Positions 4,540-61,568 of a stretch of DNA of 64,000 nt are shown here, piece by piece (position 1 is the first letter of the stretch; the number at the start of each line of letters is the position of its first letter). The notes under the pieces are model-generated. The model had not been told where the DNA came from, did not search any database, and was given only the letters and a program-made list of their open reading frames with translations. Made by a program: the position numbers and the translations under genes. Location: contig RXJP01000035.1 of the NCBI GenBank assembly GCA_003963315.1, positions 14,802-78,801 of the forward strand, written 5' to 3'. Source of the DNA: Rhodocyclaceae bacterium. GTDB taxonomy: Bacteria; Pseudomonadota; Gammaproteobacteria; Burkholderiales; Rhodocyclaceae.

Positions 4540-5307
4540 CAGCACGATCAACACCCCGGCAAAAATGCGTTTCAACGTCGCCACCGGCAAGCGGTGGGCC
4601 AACGTGGCACCCAACGGGGCCGCGACCACACTGGGCAAGACCAACATAGCCAAAGCGGGCAAGTAGATATACCCCAGGCTATTGCTGGGCAGGGCGTCCG
4701 CTCCGTAACCGCCTACCATGTAACCCACGGTGCCTGCCAAAGCGATAGGCAGGCCGAGGGCGGAGGAAGTGCCGATAGCGTGGTGCATCTTGACGTTGCA
4801 CCAGGTCATGAAGGGCACCGACAGGGATCCGCCGCCGATGGCCACCAAAGAGGACACCCCGCCGATACCGGCGCCCACCCCGAACATCCCCAGGGGACCG
4901 GGCAATACGCGGGCCGGTTTGGGCTTGGCATTGATGATCATCTGAATCGATACATAAGCCATGAACAGCACGAAGAAAATGGCCAGGGCCTGGGTAGACA
5001 CGTGGCTCACCACCTGGGCGCCAAGGAAGGTGCCCAACAGGATGCCCGGCGCCATGGCGCGCACAATGGGCCAGAGCACGGCACCGTGGCCGTGGTGGGC
5101 ACGCAGGCTGGAAATGGAGGTAAACACGATGGTGGCCAGGGAGGTGCCCAAGGCCAGGTGCATCACATGCTCGACGGGAAAGTGTTGCGCGGTGAACAGC
5201 ACGGCCAGCACCGGCACGATGATGCCGCCGCCGCCGACTCCCAACAATCCCGCAAAAAAACCGGCAAGGGCGCCGAGGGCCGCATAGGCCAATAACCAAG
5301 TCGTCAT
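4510..5307 (-). CDS. TauE/SafE family sulfite/anion exporter
   Basis: Polytopic membrane protein (MTTWLLAYAALGALAGFFAGLLGVGGGGIIVP...). The start at 5307 gives an ATGA overlap with the upstream EVE gene stop. Confidence 0.8.
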   Translation of the reverse strand: MTTWLLAYAALGALAGFFAGLLGVGGGGIIVPVLAVLFTAQHFPVEHVMHLALGTSLATIVFTSISSLRAHHGHGAVLWPIVRAMAPGILLGTFLGAQVVSHVSTQALAIFFVLFMAYVSIQMIINAKPKPARVLPGPLGMFGVGAGIGGVSSLVAIGGGSLSVPFMTWCNVKMHHAIGTSSALGLPIALAGTVGYMVGGYGADALPSNSLGYIYLPALAMLVLPSVVAAPLGATLAHRLPVATLKRIFAGVLIVLSGEMLFSLF

Positions 5308-5939: not shown

Positions 5940-6140
5940 TTGGTTTCCCCCGCCTGTGCCGTTAGGCCGCTATCCTGAACCTGGGTTCAGGGGGGCTGCG
6001 TTCCTGCTGCATCAGGTTCACCCGGAGAAGGGCGATCACAACAGCAGCGTCTAGGGTCGGCAACCATGTCTTGCGACATTGGTTCAAGGAAATTTACAGC
6101 CTTGGCGAACACCGCAGGGGAAAACCGGGGAAACCCAGCC
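5940..6140 (-). ncRNA. ssrS: 6S RNA (SsrS), boundaries approximate
   Basis: Sits immediately downstream of zapA, which is conserved synteny in gamma- and betaproteobacteria. There is no credible ORF. Minus-strand GGTTTTCCCC (about 6126-6117) can pair with GGGGGAAACC (about 5951-5942) as a closing stem. An internal hairpin CCTGAACC-CA-GGTTCAGG mirrors the E. coli 6S CCUUGAACC-AAG-GGUUCAAGG element. No covariance model was run. Confidence 0.55.
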
Positions 6141-6829: not shown

Positions 6830-7025
6830 AATCCGCCCCCTGTTCGAGGTGCCCACGCCGATTTTCTTCGGTCAGGGTGAAACGGGAAGCAGGTGAAAGA
6901 CCTGCGCTGCCCCCGCAACGGTAAGGAAGTGCGGAACCATCAAGACGCCACTGGGTGCCATCCAAAATGCGCCCGGGAAGGCGATGGTTCAAGACTTCCA
7001 AGCCCGGAGACCGGCCACGGACATT
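6830..7025 (+). promoter_or_regulatory. Cobalamin (AdoCbl) riboswitch
   Basis: Conserved core GGTGAAACGGGAAGCAGGTGAAAGACCTGCGCTGCCCCCGCAACGGTAAGG and B12 box AGCCCGGAGACCGGCC (7001-7016). A TACAAT -10 element at 6827-6832 lies just upstream, and btuB follows directly. Confidence 0.85.
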
Positions 7026-7145
7026 CGTATGAATCGCTGCGGGAGGGCAGTGGTCGGCGCATTCGTCTGCTCCGAAACTCCTTTTGCTGCGATTCCCTGT
7101 CCAATCCACTGGCAGCGGGGACGCTTGCCGGGAAAAGGAGTATCC

Positions 7146-33028: not shown

Positions 33029-33104
33029 GGGTCGGTAGCTCAGTCGGTAGAGCAGCGGACTTTTAATCCGTTGGTCGCGAGTTCGAATCTCGCCCGACCC
33101 ACCA
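33029..33104 (+). tRNA. tRNA-Lys (anticodon UUU)
   Basis: GGGTCGGTAGCTCAGTCGGTAGAGCAGCGGACTTTTAATCCGTTGGTCGCGAGTTCGAATCTCGCCCGACCCACCA folds as a canonical cloverleaf. A TATAAT box lies at 33005-33010. Confidence 0.93.
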
Positions 33105-33151
33105 AAAAGCCAGGAAAAAACGGCGCGGCTTCCGTTATAATCCGCGCCCTC

Positions 33152-33227
33152 GGGCTGTTAGCTCAGTTGGTAGAGCAGCGGACTCTTAATCCGTAGGTCG
33201 AGTGTTCGAATCACTCACAGCCCACCA
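33152..33227 (+). tRNA. tRNA-Lys (anticodon CUU)
   Basis: GGGCTGTTAGCTCAGTTGGTAGAGCAGCGGACTCTTAATCCGTAGGTCGAGTGTTCGAATCACTCACAGCCCACCA. A TATAAT box lies at 33135-33140. Confidence 0.93.
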
Positions 33228-53972: not shown

Positions 53973-56900
53973 TCAGGTGGACTCGGTGGCTTCGGCGGAT
54001 TGCGCGGCAATGCCGTTGTTGCGCTCGAGATAGGCCGTGAATGTCACCGCCGGCAGGGCCGGGCTGAAGTAGAAGCCCTGCACCTCGTTACAGCCATGGC
54101 TTTGGAGGAAATTCAACTGGCCTTGGGTCTCCACCCCTTCCGCCAGCACCTGGAGGCCGATGGAATGGGCCATTTGCACAATGGTGGTGGTGATGGTGGC
54201 ATCGTCGGCATCGAGGGTCACGTCACGGACGAAGGAACGGTCGATCTTGAGCTTGTCGATGGGCAGCTTGCGCAGATAGGCCAGGGAAGAATAGCCGGTG
54301 CCGAAATCGTCGATGGCGAGGCGGATGCCCAGGCCGCGCAGACCTTCGATATTGGCGCGAAGGACCTCCGAGGAAACGATGAGCAGGCTCTCTGTCACTT
54401 CGAATTCAAGCCGCTCCGGCGGATAGCCGGTGTCGGCCAGGATGGCGCGCACCGCGTCGAGGAAATCCTCCTGGGCAAACTGGGGCGCCGACACATTCAC
54501 CGCCATGGTCAGGTCCGTCCAGCCGGCCGCATGCCAAGCCGCGCCTTGTTTGCAGGCTTCCCTCAAGGCCCACTCGCCCAAGGAGACGATGAGGCCGCAT
54601 TCCTCCGCCACGGGAATGAACTTGAGGGGCGGCACCATGCCCAGATCCGGATGACGCCAGCGCATCAAGGCCTCGGCGCCGACGACTTTCTGTCCAACCA
54701 GCGCCACCAGGGGCTGGTAATGCATTTCGAGCTCGCCGTTCTCCAGGGCCCGGCGCAAGCCGTGCTCCATCAACAGCCGCTCGTTGGCGGTGGCGTTCAT
54801 GGCGGAGGTGAAGTAATGGAAAGTGTTGCGGCCGTGTTCCTTGGAGTGGTACATGGCCACGTCGGCGTGCTTGATCAGCGTGGTCATGTCCCTGCCGTCC
54901 TCGGGGTAGAGGGCGATGCCGATGGAAGGCGTGATGTGGAGCTCATGTCCTTCCAGCACACAGGTATCCGCCAAGCGTTCCAGCAGCTTCTCGGCCACCC
55001 GGCCGGCGTCCTCCGGTTGTTCGATATTCTCCAGCAGCACCAGGAATTCGTCTCCGCCCTGGCGGCTCACCGTATCCGTGCTGCGGACGCAGGTGCCGAT
55101 ACGGTTGGCCACCTCCTTCAGCAGCAGATCGCCGATATGGTGGCCCAGGGTGTCGTTCACCGTCTTGAAACGGTCCAGGTCGATGAAAAGCAGGGCGAAG
55201 CGCGCGCCGTTGCGTTCGCTGTGGGCGATGACATGGCTGACCCGGTCCTGGAACAGGATGCGGTTGGGCAGACCGGTCAGGAAGTCGTGTTCCGAGAGAT
55301 GGCGGATGCGTTCCTCGCTGGCCTTGCGCTCGGTAATGTCGGAGAACACGCCGACGTAATTGCACACCTTGCCCAGATCGTCCCGCACGGCGGAAATGGT
55401 CAGCCATTCCGGATAGATGCGGCCGTTTTTGCGCCGATTGACGATCTCCCCCTGCCACAGGCCCTTTTCCTTGAGGGCCAGCCACATGTCCTTGTAGAAC
55501 GCGGCGTGATGCTGGCCGGACGCCAGCTTCTTCGGGTTCTGTCCGATCATGTCCTCGCTGGTGTAGCCGGTGATCTGGGTGAAGGCGGCGTTCACCGACA
55601 ACACGTTCACCGCCTCGTCGGTCACCAGGATGCCTTCGGCGCTGGCCTTGAACACGCTGGCGGCAAGGTGGAGCTGCGTTTCGGCATCCTTGCGGCCGGT
55701 GATGTCACTGACCATGGCCACCACGCCTTCGGCCCCCTCGGCCTCGATACGGCGGGCCATGAGCTGGTGCCAGCGAAGGCCTTCCCGCAACTGCATGGTG
55801 TGCTCCGAAAACACCTGGTCCACCTTGCCCGCCATCAATTGCCGCATCTCGTCGGCATGGCGGTCGAACAGGGTCGGATTGCATTGGCGCAGATAGCGGC
55901 TGGCGGCATCGGTGCCGTATTCGCCATTATTGAGTTGGGGCAGTCCTTCCCCGGAAAAAAATTCCCGGGCCGCCCTATTGATGAAGCGATAGCGGCTGTC
56001 CGGGCCGATCATGAACACCATGGCCGGCAAGGCATCGAGCACCGCGCCCAGACGTTCCTTTTCCGCCAGCACTGCGGCTGCACGTTGCTCCCCCAGGCGT
56101 CGCTGGTGAAAAAAGAACAGGATGGCAAAGGCGGAAATACTGAGGATGATCAACGCCGCCATGGCGCTGAAGCGCAAGGCATCCTTGCGCCACTCCGTCA
56201 GGGCGTCGCCGCGCTTCAGGCGCAGCACCAGGACCAGGGGATAAAGGCGCGAGGTACGGTAGGCCGTCAGCTCGTTATGTTCCGCGTCATCGAAACTGCC
56301 CATCTCCCGCTCCGACAGGGCCAGGGGATCCCAATCCTCGGCGCGCAAGGCGCCCCATTGCATAGCCGCACTGGTACCGAACAGGGGCAAGCCGTCGTAG
56401 CGCAACACATGGAGATCGCCGGGGGATTGCAGTAAACGTTCCCGGTATTTCTGCACAAAGTAATCGGGATTGAGGGCAGCCACCAGGGTGTAGCGATGCC
56501 CGCCGCTCTTGATCTTCCGCAGCAAGGGAATAAAGCCCAGGTCGCGGGCTTCCTGCACGGCTTCGGCGCTGGCCTGGGACACAGCTTGTCCGCTGGAAAA
56601 GTCCCGGCCCAGCCAACGGCCCGCCACTTGCAACAAGCCCTCATCCCCATCCAAGGCCGGCTGGGGGTCGGTGAAACCCAGGCGCTGGCCTTCGTTGCCG
56701 GCGGAGGACGAGGCCAGCACCTGGCCATCCTCCCTCAGTACCGACAGGGAGCGGACCTGGGGCAAATTGGCGATGGACCGGCGCAGGATGGCGCGCAGAT
56801 CCGGCGCTGGCCGCTCCAGGTTTTCCGTATCCGCCAGATTGACCATCATCTGATCCGTCACCAGCACGCTCTGGGTCAGATGGTCCTCGAAGGTGCGTAC

Positions 56901-57062
56901 TTGCATTTCGGCAATACGCAGGTGATAGCTCAGGGTCTCGACACGCAGGCGATGGATGAAATAGCCGGTGGCCGTGGCCGAGGACAGGACGAACAGGGCC
57001 AGCAGGGCGAAAAAACCCCGCGCGCCCATTTGCCTTTGGGTGATCCTGTCGAGCCAGTTCAC
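53973..57062 (-). CDS. Membrane sensor with periplasmic domain, multiple PAS domains, GGDEF and EAL
   Basis: 1029 aa with two TM segments flanking a ~270-aa periplasmic region. GGDEF motif in RQGGDEFLVLL, EAL motif in EALMRWRH, and DDFGTGYSSLAYL. Confidence 0.9.
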   Translation of the reverse strand: MNWLDRITQRQMGARGFFALLALFVLSSATATGYFIHRLRVETLSYHLRIAEMQVRTFEDHLTQSVLVTDQMMVNLADTENLERPAPDLRAILRRSIANLPQVRSLSVLREDGQVLASSSAGNEGQRLGFTDPQPALDGDEGLLQVAGRWLGRDFSSGQAVSQASAEAVQEARDLGFIPLLRKIKSGGHRYTLVAALNPDYFVQKYRERLLQSPGDLHVLRYDGLPLFGTSAAMQWGALRAEDWDPLALSEREMGSFDDAEHNELTAYRTSRLYPLVLVLRLKRGDALTEWRKDALRFSAMAALIILSISAFAILFFFHQRRLGEQRAAAVLAEKERLGAVLDALPAMVFMIGPDSRYRFINRAAREFFSGEGLPQLNNGEYGTDAASRYLRQCNPTLFDRHADEMRQLMAGKVDQVFSEHTMQLREGLRWHQLMARRIEAEGAEGVVAMVSDITGRKDAETQLHLAASVFKASAEGILVTDEAVNVLSVNAAFTQITGYTSEDMIGQNPKKLASGQHHAAFYKDMWLALKEKGLWQGEIVNRRKNGRIYPEWLTISAVRDDLGKVCNYVGVFSDITERKASEERIRHLSEHDFLTGLPNRILFQDRVSHVIAHSERNGARFALLFIDLDRFKTVNDTLGHHIGDLLLKEVANRIGTCVRSTDTVSRQGGDEFLVLLENIEQPEDAGRVAEKLLERLADTCVLEGHELHITPSIGIALYPEDGRDMTTLIKHADVAMYHSKEHGRNTFHYFTSAMNATANERLLMEHGLRRALENGELEMHYQPLVALVGQKVVGAEALMRWRHPDLGMVPPLKFIPVAEECGLIVSLGEWALREACKQGAAWHAAGWTDLTMAVNVSAPQFAQEDFLDAVRAILADTGYPPERLEFEVTESLLIVSSEVLRANIEGLRGLGIRLAIDDFGTGYSSLAYLRKLPIDKLKIDRSFVRDVTLDADDATITTTIVQMAHSIGLQVLAEGVETQGQLNFLQSHGCNEVQGFYFSPALPAVTFTAYLERNNGIAAQSAEATEST

Positions 57063-57885: not shown

Positions 57886-57981
57886 ATCGAACCTCACTTC
57901 CATATATAACTAAAGGCATATTTAATGATAACGGGAAATTGCCGGGAAAGCGACTCTGCGGCGTGCGCCAAGCCACTCCCC

Positions 57982-58010
57982 TTCCATGGTTTCCGAGATC
58001 GGACTAGAAT
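57982..58010 (+). promoter_or_regulatory. Putative sigma-70 promoter of the interrupted tRNA-Gly gene
   Basis: TTCCAT-17 nt-TAGAAT followed by CCGCC. It has the same TAnAATCCGsC layout as the promoters in front of both tRNA-Lys genes and leuS. Confidence 0.5.
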
Positions 58011-58827
58011 CCGCCTTCTTCCTGCGGGTGTCGTATAACGGCATTACCTGAGCTTCCCAAGCGTGCGACTCGCGTCGCGTAGGTTAGCTGTAACCGCTGC
58101 ACACGTTCGAAGTGCAGGAACACAGCCTATCGAGAGAAGTGCCGCTTGCCGGCACGATGCGGCTAAGGCCGTACGAGTAATTGTCCTGCTGCCCGCAAGG
58201 GATGACAGGACCAGGGGTTCAGCCCCTTGTAGTCTAGGAGCGGTGCGTCACTGGTAACGGTGGGGTGCCAAGCGCTCTGACAATGTAGCCACCTTACGGG
58301 GTACGCCATATCCCGCGAGGGACTTGGTGTGATTTCGGGAGTTGCACCCGGATGAGGCGCTAGGCTGGGTTGGTTGGTCAACAAAAGTGAACCGCTATTA
58401 AACGTCGTTAAGCTTGATGAGCCAAAGGCAACTTGCAATATCGGGCTCAGCCAAAACGGCACGTGATCGGTTGTTCGCCTGCTTGGTGCGAACACGCTGA
58501 CATAGGCATCACCGGCGAAAAGGCGGGACCTTCCCAATTCTGTTACTTGTGCGGAACGAGGTAAGCCCAATGCGGCGTCTGGCCAGTTTGGTAGACAAAG
58601 GTAACCGCAAGGTTATCTGATGCTGTAGTGGGTAGAGGAGGATGGAAAAAGCGAATGCCTCGCTGTAATAGCGGGGATAGGGGATGGAACGATTGCCCCG
58701 ACGCGAAAGCGTGCAGACTTCCATCTGGTGACTCTTCGTAAGAAGGGTCTGTTCAATCGCAAACCCAACGGGGATGATGCTAAGATTCCCGGTCGGGGAT
58801 AATTGCGTCTTCCTCCGAAGGTTCAGA

Positions 58828-58901
58828 GCGGGTGTAGTTCAATGGTAGAACTCCTGGTTCCCAACCAGATAACGAGGGTTCGATTCCCTTCACCCGCTCC
58901 A
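58828..58901 (+). tRNA. Intact tRNA-Gly (anticodon CCC) located inside intron domain IV
   Basis: GCGGGTGTAGTTCAATGGTAGAACTCCTGGTTCCCAACCAGATAACGAGGGTTCGATTCCCTTCACCCGCTCCA is a 74-nt canonical cloverleaf with encoded CCA. It lies 17 nt upstream of the IEP ATG. Confidence 0.88.
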
Positions 58902-58918
58902 TACAACCGGAGGTTGAT

Positions 58919-60586
58919 ATGGACGCAATGCAATCTGATTGCGATGTCGCCTCTACGGCTTGGCAGTCTTGGCACGAAGTTTCATGGATCAAGGCTTATC
59001 AAGTTGTCGCGAGGCTACAGGCACGTATTGCGAAGGCAGCAAAAGTAGGGGAATGGCGGAGGGTTCGCACCCTGCAGAGACTCCTGACCAAATCGAGTAG
59101 TGCGAAAGTGCTGGCAGTTCGGCGGGTCACGGAGAATCAAGGCCGGAAGACTCCAGGCGTGGATAAACAAACCTGGGGCACGCCGGAAGAGAAGTGGAAA
59201 GCGGTAGTTGACCTTGGTAACAAGAGATACAAGCCGTTACCATTACGACGCATCTACATTCCGAAAGCAAATGGTGACCAACGCCCTCTGGGCATACCCA
59301 CCATGCGTGATCGGGCGATGCAAGCGCTGCATTTGCTGGCGCTGGATCCTGTTGCCGAAACAATCGCAGATCCTCATTCCTACGGTTTCAGACGTGAGCG
59401 CTCGACGGCAGATGCTATCGAACAAGTGCGCAACGTGCTGGGCCGGAAAGCTTCCCCGAAATGGGTGCTGGAAGGAGATATCAAAGGTTGTTTTGACAAC
59501 ATTAGTCATGACTGGCTGGTTGCTAATGTCTGCATAGACAAGGGCGTCCTTCGGAAATGGCTGAAAGCAGGCTTTATCGAGATGGGAAGGCTTTTCCCAA
59601 CGCAAGCAGGGACGCCACAGGGAGGCATCATTTCCCCGGTCTTGGCGAATCTGGCGCTGGATGGGCTGCAACATGAACTGACCAAACTGTTCCGTACAGT
59701 GCGGGAGGCGCGTGCGGCAAAGGTCAATCTGGTGCGGTATGCGGATGACTTCATCATCACTGGGAGCTCGCAAGAGTTTTTGGCGGAGAAGGTCAAACCT
59801 CTGGTGGAGAAATTCCTTGCCGCCCGGGGCCTCAAACTCTCGGAAAAGAAAACCAAAATCACGCATGTGACGGAGGGTTTCGACTTCCTGGGGTGGAATG
59901 TCAGATATTTCAATCGAATGCTGGTCACACAGCCGTCGAAGAAGAATATCAAGGCGTTTCTGGAGAAAATCCGCAACCTGCTGCGCGACAGAAAGGCTGC
60001 TGGACAGATCGAGGTGATCGAAAAGCTGACCCCGGTACTCAGGGGATGGGCCAACTATCATCGAAGTCAGATGGCGTCCCAGACGTTTGCAAGGTGCGAT
60101 CATCAAATCTGGCGAGCATTATGGCGCTGGGCGTGTCGCCGTCACCCAAACAAAGGGAAGCGGTGGATCAAACAGCGTTACTTCAAATGCCTCAAGGGGC
60201 GTGACTGGCGATTTGCGGATCAGGACAAGTTGCTGCCCATCTTGGCGGGATGCCGGAAACGGCCCCACACCAAGATCATGGCCGAAGCGAATCCGTACGA
60301 TCCGACGTACGACGAGTATTTTTCCAGACGGCTTGCACAGCGAATGGAAAAGACGCTCGAAGGACGGCTCAAGCTTCGCTGGTTGTGGTGGTGGCAGGAA
60401 GGTGAATGCCCCATCTGCAATCAAAAGATCACGAGAGAAACCGGGTGGCACCTCCACCACATAATCAAGCGATCTCAGCGAGGTTCGGACAAGCTGACCA
60501 ACTTGGTCTTGCTGCATCCGAATTGCCATATGCAGTACCACGTTTTTGAGAAATACGGCCCTGCCGGCACCTCAATGTTCAAATAG
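58919..60586 (+). CDS. Group II intron-encoded protein: reverse transcriptase / maturase (X) / HNH endonuclease
   Basis: 555 aa. RT motifs are IPKANGDQRPLGIPTMRDR, SYGFRRERS, DIKGCFDNISH, GTPQGGIISPVLANLAL, YADDFIITG and GFDFLGW. The X domain has RGWANYHR. The En domain has CPICNQ...HLHHII...LLHPNCHMQYH. A GGAGG RBS lies at 58909-58913. Confidence 0.93.
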   Translation: MDAMQSDCDVASTAWQSWHEVSWIKAYQVVARLQARIAKAAKVGEWRRVRTLQRLLTKSSSAKVLAVRRVTENQGRKTPGVDKQTWGTPEEKWKAVVDLGNKRYKPLPLRRIYIPKANGDQRPLGIPTMRDRAMQALHLLALDPVAETIADPHSYGFRRERSTADAIEQVRNVLGRKASPKWVLEGDIKGCFDNISHDWLVANVCIDKGVLRKWLKAGFIEMGRLFPTQAGTPQGGIISPVLANLALDGLQHELTKLFRTVREARAAKVNLVRYADDFIITGSSQEFLAEKVKPLVEKFLAARGLKLSEKKTKITHVTEGFDFLGWNVRYFNRMLVTQPSKKNIKAFLEKIRNLLRDRKAAGQIEVIEKLTPVLRGWANYHRSQMASQTFARCDHQIWRALWRWACRRHPNKGKRWIKQRYFKCLKGRDWRFADQDKLLPILAGCRKRPHTKIMAEANPYDPTYDEYFSRRLAQRMEKTLEGRLKLRWLWWWQEGECPICNQKITRETGWHLHHIIKRSQRGSDKLTNLVLLHPNCHMQYHVFEKYGPAGTSMFK

Positions 60587-60605
60587 GGGTGCTTATGGGT
60601 TGCTT

Positions 60606-60639
60606 GAGCCGTATGCGGGGAAACTTGCACGTACGGTTC
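60606..60639 (+). other. Group II intron domain V (catalytic hairpin)
   Basis: GAGCCGTATGCGGGGAAACTTGCACGTACGGTTC is a 34-nt hairpin with an AGC triad, a 2-nt bulge and a GAAA tetraloop, typical of chloroplast-like/IIB bacterial introns. Confidence 0.9.
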
Positions 60640-60715
60640 TTAGGGGAGGGGGTGGCCGTGAGGCTACCCCCTTACCCGCCTCATGAAGAGGGTTCGACTC
60701 CCTTCACCCGCTCCA

Positions 60716-60744
60716 AAAAACAAAGGGCGCCCCACGGCGCCCTT
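60716..60744 (-). terminator. Rho-independent terminator of the dioxygenase gene (abuts the tRNA-Gly 3' end, possibly bidirectional)
   Basis: The minus strand reads AAGGGCGCC-GTGG-GGCGCCCTT followed by TGTTTTTT. Confidence 0.7.
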
Positions 60745-60767
60745 GTCCGTTTACGCCTTCCCCCGTG

Positions 60768-61568
60768 TCAGCCGATCTGGCAGGACAGCATGCTCAGGGA
60801 ATGCAGGTGGGTTCCCGTCACCGGGAATGACACTTTTTCCCCCTCACCCTGAAGGGCTATTGCATAGAGCAAAGGCAGGTAATGGTCGGGGCTAGGCACG
60901 GAAAGACGGGCATCCTCACCCAAGGCTTCGTAGTGGATCAAGCCGGCGTGATCGCCTTTCTCCAACATGGCCCTGACGGCTGCGTCGAAACGCACGCACC
61001 AGTCGGCGGGCGGCGACGTTTCGCTGCGGTTGAGGGTGCGCAGGTTGTGCACCACATTGCCGCTGGCCACCACCAACACGTCTTCATCCCGCAATGGCCG
61101 CAAACGACGGGCCAGTTGGTAGTGGTACTCCGGCGGCTGGGTGCCGTCCATGGACAACTGCACCACGGGGATATCGGCCCTGGGAAACAGATGCATCAAC
61201 ACCGACCAGGTGCCGTGGTCCAGCCCCCAGCTATCCTTGTCCTGCCCCACCGGCGTCGGCGCCAGCAATTGGGCCACCCGCTGCGCCAGGGCCGGGGAGC
61301 CGGGGGCGGGATATTGCACGTCGAACAATTCCTGGGGGAAGCCGTGGAAGTCGTGGATGGTGGGCGGCTTTTCCATGGCCGTGACATGGGTGCCGCGGGT
61401 ATAGAAATGGGCCGAGACGGCGAGGATGGCTTTGGGCTTGCGGGGCAGCAGCGCTTCGCCCCATTGGTGCCAGAGCGGACGGAAACGGTTTTCGGTGATG
61501 GCATTCATGGGCGTGCCGTGGGCCACGAACAGCACCGGCATGGGAACAGGATGGCTCATGGCATTCAT
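60768..61568 (-). CDS. ygiD: 4,5-DOPA dioxygenase extradiol-like protein (YgiD, LigB superfamily)
   Basis: PVLFVAHGTPMNAI...AILAVSAHFYT...IHDFHGFPQELF...DHGTWSVL. Confidence 0.85.
   Translation of the reverse strand: MNAMSHPVPMPVLFVAHGTPMNAITENRFRPLWHQWGEALLPRKPKAILAVSAHFYTRGTHVTAMEKPPTIHDFHGFPQELFDVQYPAPGSPALAQRVAQLLAPTPVGQDKDSWGLDHGTWSVLMHLFPRADIPVVQLSMDGTQPPEYHYQLARRLRPLRDEDVLVVASGNVVHNLRTLNRSETSPPADWCVRFDAAVRAMLEKGDHAGLIHYEALGEDARLSVPSPDHYLPLLYAIALQGEGEKVSFPVTGTHLHSLSMLSCQIG

Follow-up and report, generated by a model that had tools for sequence, protein, structure and literature searches.

Why would a mobile intron that splits a tRNA gene carry a second, complete copy of that gene inside itself? 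This question is raised by a locus in a 64,000-nt stretch of DNA from a Rhodocyclaceae bacterium (contig RXJP01000035.1, positions 14,802 to 78,801 of the forward strand; hereafter the window, whose first letter is position 1). Here, a single intact group IIB1 intron of 2618 nt (58063-60680, + strand) interrupts a host tRNA-Gly(CCC) gene between tRNA nt 40 and 41, and within domain IV (D4) of this intron, upstream of the gene for the intron-encoded protein (IEP), lies a complete tRNA-Gly(CCC), which we call the cargo. A first-pass annotation, made from the letters of the window, had read the cargo as a spare copy that would neutralise the cost of the insertion. All coordinates it gave were exact: the cargo at 58828-58901, the flanking CCTCCG at 58812-58817 and CGGAGG at 58908-58913, and the IEP start codon at 58919. 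Judging from comparisons among related sequences, we consider it probable that the cargo is a spare tRNA-Gly(CCC) offsetting the insertion cost of a site-specific IIB1 lineage. The locus is composed of the following features.

58024-58062, + strand: 5' exon of the host tRNA-Gly(CCC), tRNA nt 1-40 (first 39 bases); its last 13 nt hold the intron-binding sites IBS2 and IBS1
Within the host 5' exon, + strand: IBS2 AGCTT at -12 to -8 and IBS1 CCAAGC at -6 to -1
58063-60680, + strand: complete group IIB1 intron; 5' end GUGCGAC, 3' end ...CCUUACCCGCC, bulged A of domain VI (D6) at 60674
58211-58359, + strand: core segment of domain I (D1); Rfam RF02012 (group-II-D1D4-7), 103.3 bits, full length
58410-58416, + strand: exon-binding site EBS2, AAGCUUG; pairs with 5' exon positions -8 to -12, with two wobble pairs at -13 and -14
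58481-58486, + strand: EBS1, GCUUGG, in the loop of a hairpin with a covarying stem; pairs with IBS1 CCAAGC
58520, + strand: candidate EBS3 (A), a predicted placement; pairs with the first 3'-exon base, T60681, which is tRNA nt 41
58803-58810, + strand: 5' strand of the D4 bracket stem, UUGCGUCU; pairs with 58921-58928 in the minimum free energy (MFE) fold
58812-58817, + strand: CCUCCG tract; could pair with the ribosome-binding site (RBS) in the window copy, part of a small local hairpin in relatives
58828-58901, + strand: cargo tRNA-Gly(CCC), 74 nt, with CCA encoded at 58899-58901 (ARAGORN; Rfam tRNA)
58908-58913, + strand: CGGAGG, containing the IEP Shine-Dalgarno sequence GGAGG (58909-58913)
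58919-60586, + strand: IEP, 555 aa, with reverse transcriptase (RT; YADD), maturase and HNH endonuclease domains
58921-58928, + strand: 3' strand of the D4 bracket stem, GGACGCAA; runs from the start codon's G through codon 3
60604-60680, + strand: domains V and VI (D5/D6); Rfam RF00029, 66.4 bits
60681-60715, + strand: 3' exon of the host tRNA-Gly(CCC), tRNA nt 41-76 including CCA (35 bases)
60723-60744, called on the minus strand: G+C-rich terminator-like hairpin 3' of the host tRNA gene

The window intron shows the features by which group II introns are recognized: a GUGYG start (GUGCG at 58063), matches to the D5/D6 and D1 models and, in D4, an IEP with an endonuclease domain (En+). The bulged A60674 is the seventh nucleotide from the intron 3' end. 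The Pfam domains RVT_N, RVT_1, GIIM and HNH were found in the IEP, the YADD motif is present in its translation, and the closest solved structure is the maturase/RT of the T. elongatus IIB ribonucleoprotein (RNP) (6ME0; 608 bits over residues 10-542). Both exon pairings are in place, EBS1-IBS1 as GCUUGG/CCAAGC and EBS2-IBS2 as AAGCU/AGCUU. A permissive Rfam scan of 57900-60900 yielded no second D1 and no second D5/D6, and the element is therefore one intron rather than two fragments. With its single D1 and single D5/D6 it is not a twintron, an arrangement that does occur at the related locus L027. No integrase was found in the intron, whose sole open reading frame (ORF) is the RT, and it thus does not belong with the tRNA-targeting integrative elements. 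Its position at nt 40/41 of a tRNA gene also sets it apart from the specialised IIB1 family, whose members are inserted at start or stop codons. Given the complete IEP domains and the matching and covarying EBS elements, the window intron looks active.

The host and cargo tRNAs are isoacceptors, as the first-pass annotation had stated. Joining 58024-58062 to 60681-60715 in silico gives a 74-nt tRNA-Gly(CCC) (ARAGORN), whose acceptor stem is identical to that of the cargo and whose T loop differs by one base. The cargo, situated between ribozyme D1 and the IEP, was called as tRNA-Gly(CCC) at 58828-58901 (+) by ARAGORN, one of three tRNAs in the window, and matched the Rfam tRNA model over 58828-58898 (68.5 bits, E 8e-13), which bears out the claim of an internal tRNA with an encoded CCA. 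Its 3' end lies in D4, 17 nt from the IEP ATG. The window cargo has a G31-C39 variant of the anticodon stem and, as its one blemish, a C27-A43 mismatch. One correction to the earlier reading concerns the host gene: the D arm, TCGTATAACGGCATTAC, unusual as it is, belongs to the type native to Rhodocyclales, is common to the host genes of L001-L013 and is not a product of decay.

To place the cargo in an evolutionary context, relatives of the IEP were collected by a back-translated search with one genome per species (571 matches, of which the best 80 were analysed), and metagenomes were scanned with an 18-mer, GGAGGTTGATATGGACGC, that presupposes no tRNA (at least 120 stretches). D5 and the intron 5' ends were located by nhmmer plus motif search, regular expressions being too brittle, and the IEP tree is a quick neighbour-joining tree. 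Counts throughout include related sequences and do not represent independent events. The survey of IEP homologs for a D4 tRNA, which the first-pass annotation had put forward as a check, was positive: ARAGORN placed the cargo at the same point in 54 of 56 informative genome loci, from Beta- and Gammaproteobacteria, and in at least 90 metagenome contigs (tRNA-Gly(CCC) lies directly upstream in 90 of the 120 stretches listed, most of the others being unrelated genes), giving about 145 cargo-bearing sequences in total. In relatives covering the region, down to approximately 58% IEP identity, tRNA-Gly(CCC) ends about 18 nt before the IEP start. The layout is thus not an isolated rearrangement. Nor did assembly error survive as an explanation, since the same layout occurs in complete chromosomes (CP054864.1, NZ_OZ257250.1) and in multi-megabase contigs. 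No other tRNA or isoacceptor was found as cargo in the 56 informative genome loci or among the listed metagenome matches. Carriers include Rhodocyclales, Oxalobacteraceae, Gallionellaceae, the Rubrivivax/Piscinibacter group, Lysobacterales, Rhodanobacteraceae and others.

The insertion site is as constant as the cargo. Every carrier has a split tRNA-Gly(CCC) in which the 5' half ends ...GCTTCCCAAGC, the intron begins GTGCGAC, and the tRNA 3' half follows the intron; in-silico splicing restored a tRNA-Gly(CCC) in 47 of 47 reconstructable hosts. The tRNA-hosted introns are monophyletic in the IEP tree, and their sister group is formed by cargo-free introns of the groEL stop codon. Relatives below about 59% IEP identity are without a tRNA and are inserted elsewhere, nine of them in the groEL stop codon. 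In the groEL introns, D4 reads, in order, long hairpin, GCGTC, small hairpin, RBS and ATG, with the tRNA absent. Since this sister clade has the same D4 layout without a tRNA, the cargo corresponds to a single insertion of approximately 85-90 nt.

No plasmid-borne copy covering at least 80% of the element was found, and flank synteny between the window locus and the other genome loci was not detected. An empty-site control by way of the neighbouring LigB-family gene gave no empty site: two longer contigs were not syntenic, and the 95%-identical one, a short-read contig (L203:2450-2525), breaks off within the T arm encoded by the host 3' exon. The distance from the intron 5' end to the D1 landmark ranges from 166 to 367 nt, the remainder being constant; this variable stretch might correspond to the subdomain Ia insertion. 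Long 5' segments were seen in L056:1605-2906 (1302 nt), which has an extra ~490 nt between EBS1 and cargo, and in L001:1870-2908 (1039 nt), as opposed to the usual ~770-870 nt. The L001 contig (JBLNBM010000027.1) is labelled Bacteroidota; an IEP 90% identical to the one in the window, together with a Rhodocyclales-type host tRNA, suggests mis-binning or a recent transfer.

Next, we asked whether the cargo evolves as a tRNA. We aligned 55 cargos, comprising 36 distinct sequences, on the cloverleaf. In the 36 distinct sequences 98.3% of the stem cells were paired, compared with 85.6% in shuffles and 45-54% in slid controls. Both-sided changes were present in 9 of the 21 cloverleaf pairs, and the covariation score of 0.329 (0.097 in shuffles) was reached by none of 500 shuffles. 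Six of the seven acceptor-stem pairs are invariant and the other covaries, while three to six pair types occur at each position of the anticodon stem. Invariant in all 36 sequences are the anticodon loop, G1-C72, C2-G71, G3-C70, U73, the T-loop UUCGA (54-58), G18/G19 and CCA, as well as U8, A14, U33 and C61. Glycyl-tRNA synthetase (GlyRS) of bacteria recognizes an identity set of G1-C72, C2-G71, G3-C70, U73, C35 and C36, all positions of which are invariant in the cargo alignment. The cargo evolves as a tRNA. A cloverleaf kept by compensatory changes, together with the invariant loop, acceptor stem and discriminator and the constancy of the isoacceptor, indirectly supports its proposed role as a spare copy.

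None of about 149 informative copies showed decay of the cargo; five copies are incomplete, and all five were cut by the same foreign element. In these (L014:2880-2985, L058:2860-2960, L098, L126 and L157:7560-7670) only the 3' part of the cargo is present, from the T loop onward, preceded in each case by a conserved sequence of about 100 nt. The next upstream ORF in L157 (3245-7348) encodes HTH, Mrr nuclease and STAND NTPase domains. The conserved sequence resembles the distal end (attR) of an integrative defence island, for which the cargo tRNA would have served as attachment site. L014 and L058 were considered as cargo-free ancestors and ruled out: both are without D1 and retain a cargo 3' remnant, preceded by the conserved foreign element end that they have in common with L098, L126 and L157. 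On the host side, the sole sign of exon decay was seen at L047, where the 3' exon (4782-4816) ends ...CACCCGCTCAT instead of ...CTCCA, so that the exonic tRNA has no encoded CCA; the cargo at this locus has a T31-A39 pair.

A cargo that copies the target raises a further question, namely, how the intron avoids homing into it. Wherever an intron follows CCAAGC, its EBS1 reads GCTTGG; the two introns that follow CCAACC have GGTTGG. In these two retargeted introns, whose hosts are GG..CC-type tRNAs, EBS1 GGUUGG is accompanied by EBS2 AACCA, such that the flip of the 31-39 pair is compensated at both sites; in L048, a G at host position -12 is matched by EBS2 AAGCC. The candidate EBS3 pairs with host position +1 in 45 of 48 introns and is U in five introns whose host has A. 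A MAFFT alignment of the 5' segments was too gappy to give a clean EBS3 column; pairwise mapping to the window gave 58520.

The GCTTCCCAAGC motif is kept in about 85% of cargos. The cargo contains what its carrier targets, and for this reason a mismatch between the two is maintained at nt 41 and/or the 31-39 pair. At nt 41 the host has T in 40 of 48 cases, whereas the cargo has A in 29, C in 13 and T in 6 of 48, and in only 9 of 49 cases does the candidate EBS3 pair with the cargo that the intron itself carries. The window cargo (G31-C39, A41) mismatches its own carrier at IBS1, IBS2 and the putative IBS3. The 31-39 pair is changed in approximately 13% of cargos, which rules out its flip as a general device of self-immunity; the difference at nt 41 is more general. 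That cargos are mostly mismatched points to selection against self-targeting. The glyU gene of E. coli, with GCGGGCGTAGTTCAATGGTAGAACGAGAGCTTCCCAAGC before and TCTATACG... after the insertion point, matches EBS1, EBS2 and the candidate EBS3 of the window intron (L204; NZ_AP018784.2, 1004033-1004106, reading ...GAGAGCTTCCCAAGC up to the site and TCT after it), and it is uninterrupted in 5411 of 5426 complete E. coli genomes.

At L027, a retargeted intron has invaded a cargo. Here, a three-level nest is found: the host tRNA is split by an outer intron, whose cargo (of the GG..CC type) is in turn split at nt 40/41 by an inner, ORF-deleted intron. EBS1, EBS2 and the candidate EBS3 of the inner intron match the outer cargo, and its own cargo is intact. 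At L028, a fossil consisting of a tRNA 5' half and an intron 5' segment lies directly upstream of an intron-containing tRNA, and at L031 the 3' half of a cargo lies between two IEP-D5/D6 modules; both look like recombination products of nests. Nesting was seen in 3 of 56 genome loci, and a second 5' junction upstream of the cargo was not found in any listed metagenome contig. One IEP is damaged in nested loci: the second copy in L031 (4809-6456) is frameshifted near residue 258, and the inner copy in L027 (3001-3243) is cut to residues 1-81. One intact RT per nested locus appears to be enough. A nest of another kind is found at L016:4704-7000, where a segment of ~2.3 kb splits the intron D5/D6 and encodes a second RT with 34% identity to the IEP over residues 66-328; the insert probably represents another, distinct group II intron that sits within the first.

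Cargo and host bodies have also been exchanged. In six Gallionellaceae loci both flanks are 75-82% identical at the nucleotide level, which marks these loci as the same chromosomal gene, yet their exonic tRNA bodies differ. The host of L026 is the exact cargo sequence of L020-L025, and its cargo is the exact host sequence of L020 and L024. Likewise, the L008 cargo is of the host type of L033/L034. A broader scheme, which we regard as possible though doubtful, is that intron and cargo constitute a system of tRNA-gene replacement and arms race. Under such a scheme, a cargo could turn into the chromosomal tRNA-Gly(CCC) gene by recombining with the flanking exons and a host tRNA could turn into cargo, so that the retroelement would move whole tRNA bodies between Beta- and Gammaproteobacteria, cargos would escape self-homing through flips (29-41, 31-39), and re-evolved EBS1/2/3 variants would invade them, giving rise to nests.

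Next, we turned to the surroundings of the cargo. The first-pass annotation had proposed that CCTCCG and CGGAGG form a stem that hides the RBS. In the MFE fold of 58780-58945 (-65.4 kcal/mol, z = -4.7, with none of 200 shuffles as good) these tracts are indeed paired, and their helix is stacked with a second one, GCGTCY/GGACGC, around the cloverleaf. Across the clade, CCTCCG/CGGAGG has 75% of cells paired, against 52-66% in slid controls, without covariation; only a pyrimidine tract facing a purine tract is conserved, and the stem is unsupported as a conserved feature. For GCGTCY/GGACGC, the core pairs reach 72-97% in 36 sequences, against 21-45% in slid controls for the whole 8-pair stem. This helix is almost invariant, with one compensatory case (GTGTCC/GGACAC in L048). 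The register-specific bracket is GCGTCY/GGACGC, and it covers the start codon and codons 2-3. The 23 nt on the 3' side of the cargo, CAACCGGAGGTTGATATGGACGC, are nearly invariant in the clade. RNAalifold applied to the flanks recovered the cloverleaf alone.

A consensus scan of the + strand detected no sigma-70-like promoter inside the intron; the cargo is therefore probably transcribed from the host tRNA promoter within the precursor. A terminator-like hairpin is found only after the host 3' exon, and its symmetric stem (60723-60744) could terminate the host tRNA transcript too. RNase P and 3' trimming act on tRNAs that form part of a longer transcript. A coupling of RNase P/Z cleavage to IEP expression, as put forward in the first-pass annotation, is plausible. 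Group II introns depend on host promoters (PMC12584367), and when cut in domain IV they still undergo splicing in vivo in the presence of their IEP (PMC1874635).

Herein, we describe the process that these observations suggest. A monophyletic IIB1 lineage would home to tRNA-Gly(CCC) at nt 40/41 via EBS1, EBS2 and probably EBS3, its recognition covering the anticodon loop and the adjoining stem. This lineage gained a complete tRNA-Gly(CCC) in D4, between the small hairpin and the IEP RBS. The host tRNA promoter probably drives transcription of the cargo within the precursor, from which RNase P at the 5' end and 3' trimming to the encoded CCA would release it. Once released, it could supply tRNA-Gly(CCC) however efficiently the 2.6-kb intron splices, and a steady supply would lower the cost of invasion and aid persistence of the element. 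Cleavage would also cut the intron RNA just upstream of the RBS, undoing the D4 helix over the start codon (and over the RBS in the window copy) and thereby freeing the IEP mRNA. The D4-cut intron may splice in two pieces, and only uncleaved molecules would serve as templates for mobility. The anatomy of the element, its conservation and covariation, the target pairing and the nesting can be read from the sequences, whereas expression, maturation and charging of the cargo and a gain in fitness are inferred. A need for compensation is plausible, since tRNA-Gly(CCC) is single-copy in E. coli (median of one place per genome in 5411 genomes, a figure that describes E. coli and not the carriers).

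Several points weigh against a compensating role. All 47 hosts are intact after in-silico splicing, so splicing may itself restore the tRNA and make the cargo redundant. E. coli tolerates the loss of glyU, and the cost to be offset may therefore be small. Exchange between host and cargo could import a covariation signal from host genes that are under selection. Finally, release of the cargo would destroy the full-length intron RNA that retrohoming requires.

If the cargo is not a spare gene, then it may mainly serve the intron itself, as punctuation for RNase P and 3' processing or as an RNP scaffold, separating the ribozyme 5' part from the IEP mRNA and unmasking the RBS and start codon, with decoding incidental. 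Much of the D4 architecture fits such a role: the cargo 3' end lies within ~10 nt of the Shine-Dalgarno sequence in nearly all loci (L052 being the exception), the 23 nt downstream are almost invariant, the register-specific GCGTCY/GGACGC helix lies over the start codon, the RBS is buried as well in the window MFE fold, no internal promoter was found, and introns fragmented in D4 still splice. However, a processing signal needs neither an invariant CCC anticodon loop nor the glycine identity pairs and U73, and it would not require the cargo to be the isoacceptor of the target in all ~145 cases. The sister groEL introns, one of which is highly mobile, share the D4 layout and RBS without a tRNA. 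We therefore consider this explanation unlikely as the main one, although it is compatible with a spare tRNA rather than exclusive of it. An insertion that does nothing at all could also look tRNA-like, if a copy of the target was captured once and has since been kept intact-looking by recombination or gene conversion with host tRNAs. The interchangeable bodies (the L008 cargo matching the L033/L034 host, and L026 as the reciprocal of L020-L025 at a syntenic locus) and the recombination products of nested copies at L028 and L031 show the kind of exchange that a passenger would depend on. Yet no decayed copy was present among the ~149, the five incomplete ones having been cut by one foreign element; all of the clade, down to 58% IEP identity, has the cargo inserted at one and the same point; and homogenizing conversion would not give a systematic cargo-host difference at nt 41. 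These findings make a functionless passenger very unlikely.

The perfect twintron at L027, with its inner intron at nt 40/41 of the outer cargo, and the retention of the GCTTCCCAAGC motif in ~85% of cargos might instead suggest that the cargo is a portable homing site or decoy, which lets further copies nest where the genome offers one natural site. This role is hard to reconcile with the mismatch of 40 of 49 cargos to their carrier at EBS3 and/or EBS1/EBS2 and with the rarity of nests (3 of 56 genome loci, none among the listed metagenome contigs), and a homing site has no use for an intact D arm, T arm, acceptor stem and CCA; we judge it highly improbable. Lastly, the arrangement might be produced by mis-assembly or by two truncated introns around an ordinary tRNA gene. 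Short-read assemblies do seem to break at the ~30 nt that cargo and host 3' exon have in common, as at L203, where the contig ends in the T arm. Nevertheless, D1 and D5/D6 each occur only once at the window locus, its flanking exons rebuild a tRNA, and the same architecture recurs in ~145 assemblies, including CP054864.1, NZ_OZ257250.1 and multi-megabase contigs, leaving an artefact with a negligible probability. A spare tRNA-Gly(CCC) that offsets the cost of insertion is the explanation we favour.

Elsewhere in the window, further RNA features are a 6S RNA (5943-6123, -), a cobalamin riboswitch (6830-7033, +) and a tRNA-Lys(UUU)/tRNA-Lys(CUU) pair (33029-33227, +). A large ORF two genes upstream of the split tRNA (53973-57062, -) has a translation that resembles a sensor with GGDEF/EAL-type diguanylate cyclase/phosphodiesterase motifs; it appears to be unrelated to the intron.

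In the usual view, group II introns carry only a reverse transcriptase and limit their harm by splicing or by avoiding genes. A retroelement lineage that, as a whole, carries a working-looking copy of the gene it interrupts would meet its cost in another manner. It raises the questions of what an intron in a tRNA costs, whether a ribozyme cut in two by tRNA enzymes can still function, and how homing into its own copy of the target is avoided. Domain IV accommodates a structured RNA gene beside the start of the IEP, which is relevant to intron vectors that might deliver tRNAs. There are practical consequences as well: tRNA scanners report the cargo as the tRNA-Gly(CCC) of the genome and miss the split host gene, and the 30-nt repeat of cargo and host exon probably breaks short-read contigs. 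The element is present in cultured strains, including Piscinibacter (Ideonella) sakaiensis 201-F6, Duganella alba FT9W and Massilia sp. Bi118, and E. coli glyU is a perfect predicted target.

In the searchable literature we found no description of a bacterial group II intron lying in tRNA-Gly or carrying a tRNA, in agreement with the novelty claim of the first-pass annotation, although an earlier mention is possible. Partial parallels exist. Integrative islands and phages in tRNA genes bring a replacement 3' segment that restores the disrupted tRNA. The restoring logic is the same and the resemblance to the window element is functional only: islands and phages integrate by means of a tyrosine integrase, and only the tRNA 3' part is duplicated by them, whereas here a retroelement carries a whole, separately folded tRNA. 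Organellar group II introns in tRNA genes (plastid trnK/matK, trnG, trnV, trnA and trnI; red-algal mitochondrial trnI) likewise combine a split tRNA with a D4 IEP or maturase (PMC4424553, PMC10455443). Unlike the present introns, they are immobile or degenerate, vertically fixed and without a tRNA copy; the term 'intronic tRNA' in the red-algal papers refers to an intron-containing trnI (PMC10455443). Bacterial group I introns in tRNA anticodon loops (tRNA-Leu, -fMet, -Ile and -Arg) are self-splicing introns in the same region (bioRxiv 10.1101/2020.01.27.920355; PMC4853749), but they belong to another ribozyme class and are not known to have a reverse transcriptase or a cargo tRNA. In fungal mitochondria, tRNA genes do lie inside introns, as here (PMC7902536); they are reported only as features of gene maps, and neither a tie to the gene that is split nor a fixed position nor a case from a bacterial group II intron is given. 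Twintrons of Euglena plastids, cyanobacteria and plant mitochondria (PMC7049729) resemble L027 as group II introns within group II introns. What distinguishes L027 is that the nest site is the D4 cargo tRNA, homologous to the outer site, and that EBS1, EBS2 and the candidate EBS3 of the invader are retargeted.

The nearest systems are other IIB1 introns. With the T. elongatus IIB RNP (6ME0) and other CL/IIB1 En+ introns, the window element shares the RT, maturase and HNH domains and recognition through EBS1, EBS2 and, probably, EBS3; for those introns no cargo RNA gene in D4 has been described, and tRNA genes are not their targets. Specialised IIB1 lineages, including that of the groEL stop codon, were reportedly described by Michel et al. 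in 2007. This specialised family is characterised by a position at or beside the start or stop codon of a protein-coding housekeeping gene, and by a 5'-subterminal insertion of 300-700 nt at the base of domain I (PMC12584367). Its groEL-stop-codon members (Avi.groEL, EcKTE56.groEL; PMC12584367) are the closest IEP relatives, at 54-59% identity, and in our set they are represented by L060, L061, L064, L066-L070 and L079, with ATGATGTA before the intron and A after it at the groEL stop codon. The two groups share the D4 layout, the GUGCGAC start, D5/D6, an En+ IEP, a variable region near the 5' end and the colonisation of one exact position in a conserved housekeeping gene. They differ in that the target here is a tRNA gene instead of a start or stop codon, and in that D4 holds a tRNA. 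The window element is thus an IIB1 En+ intron and a sister to the groEL lineage, without the target that defines that lineage.

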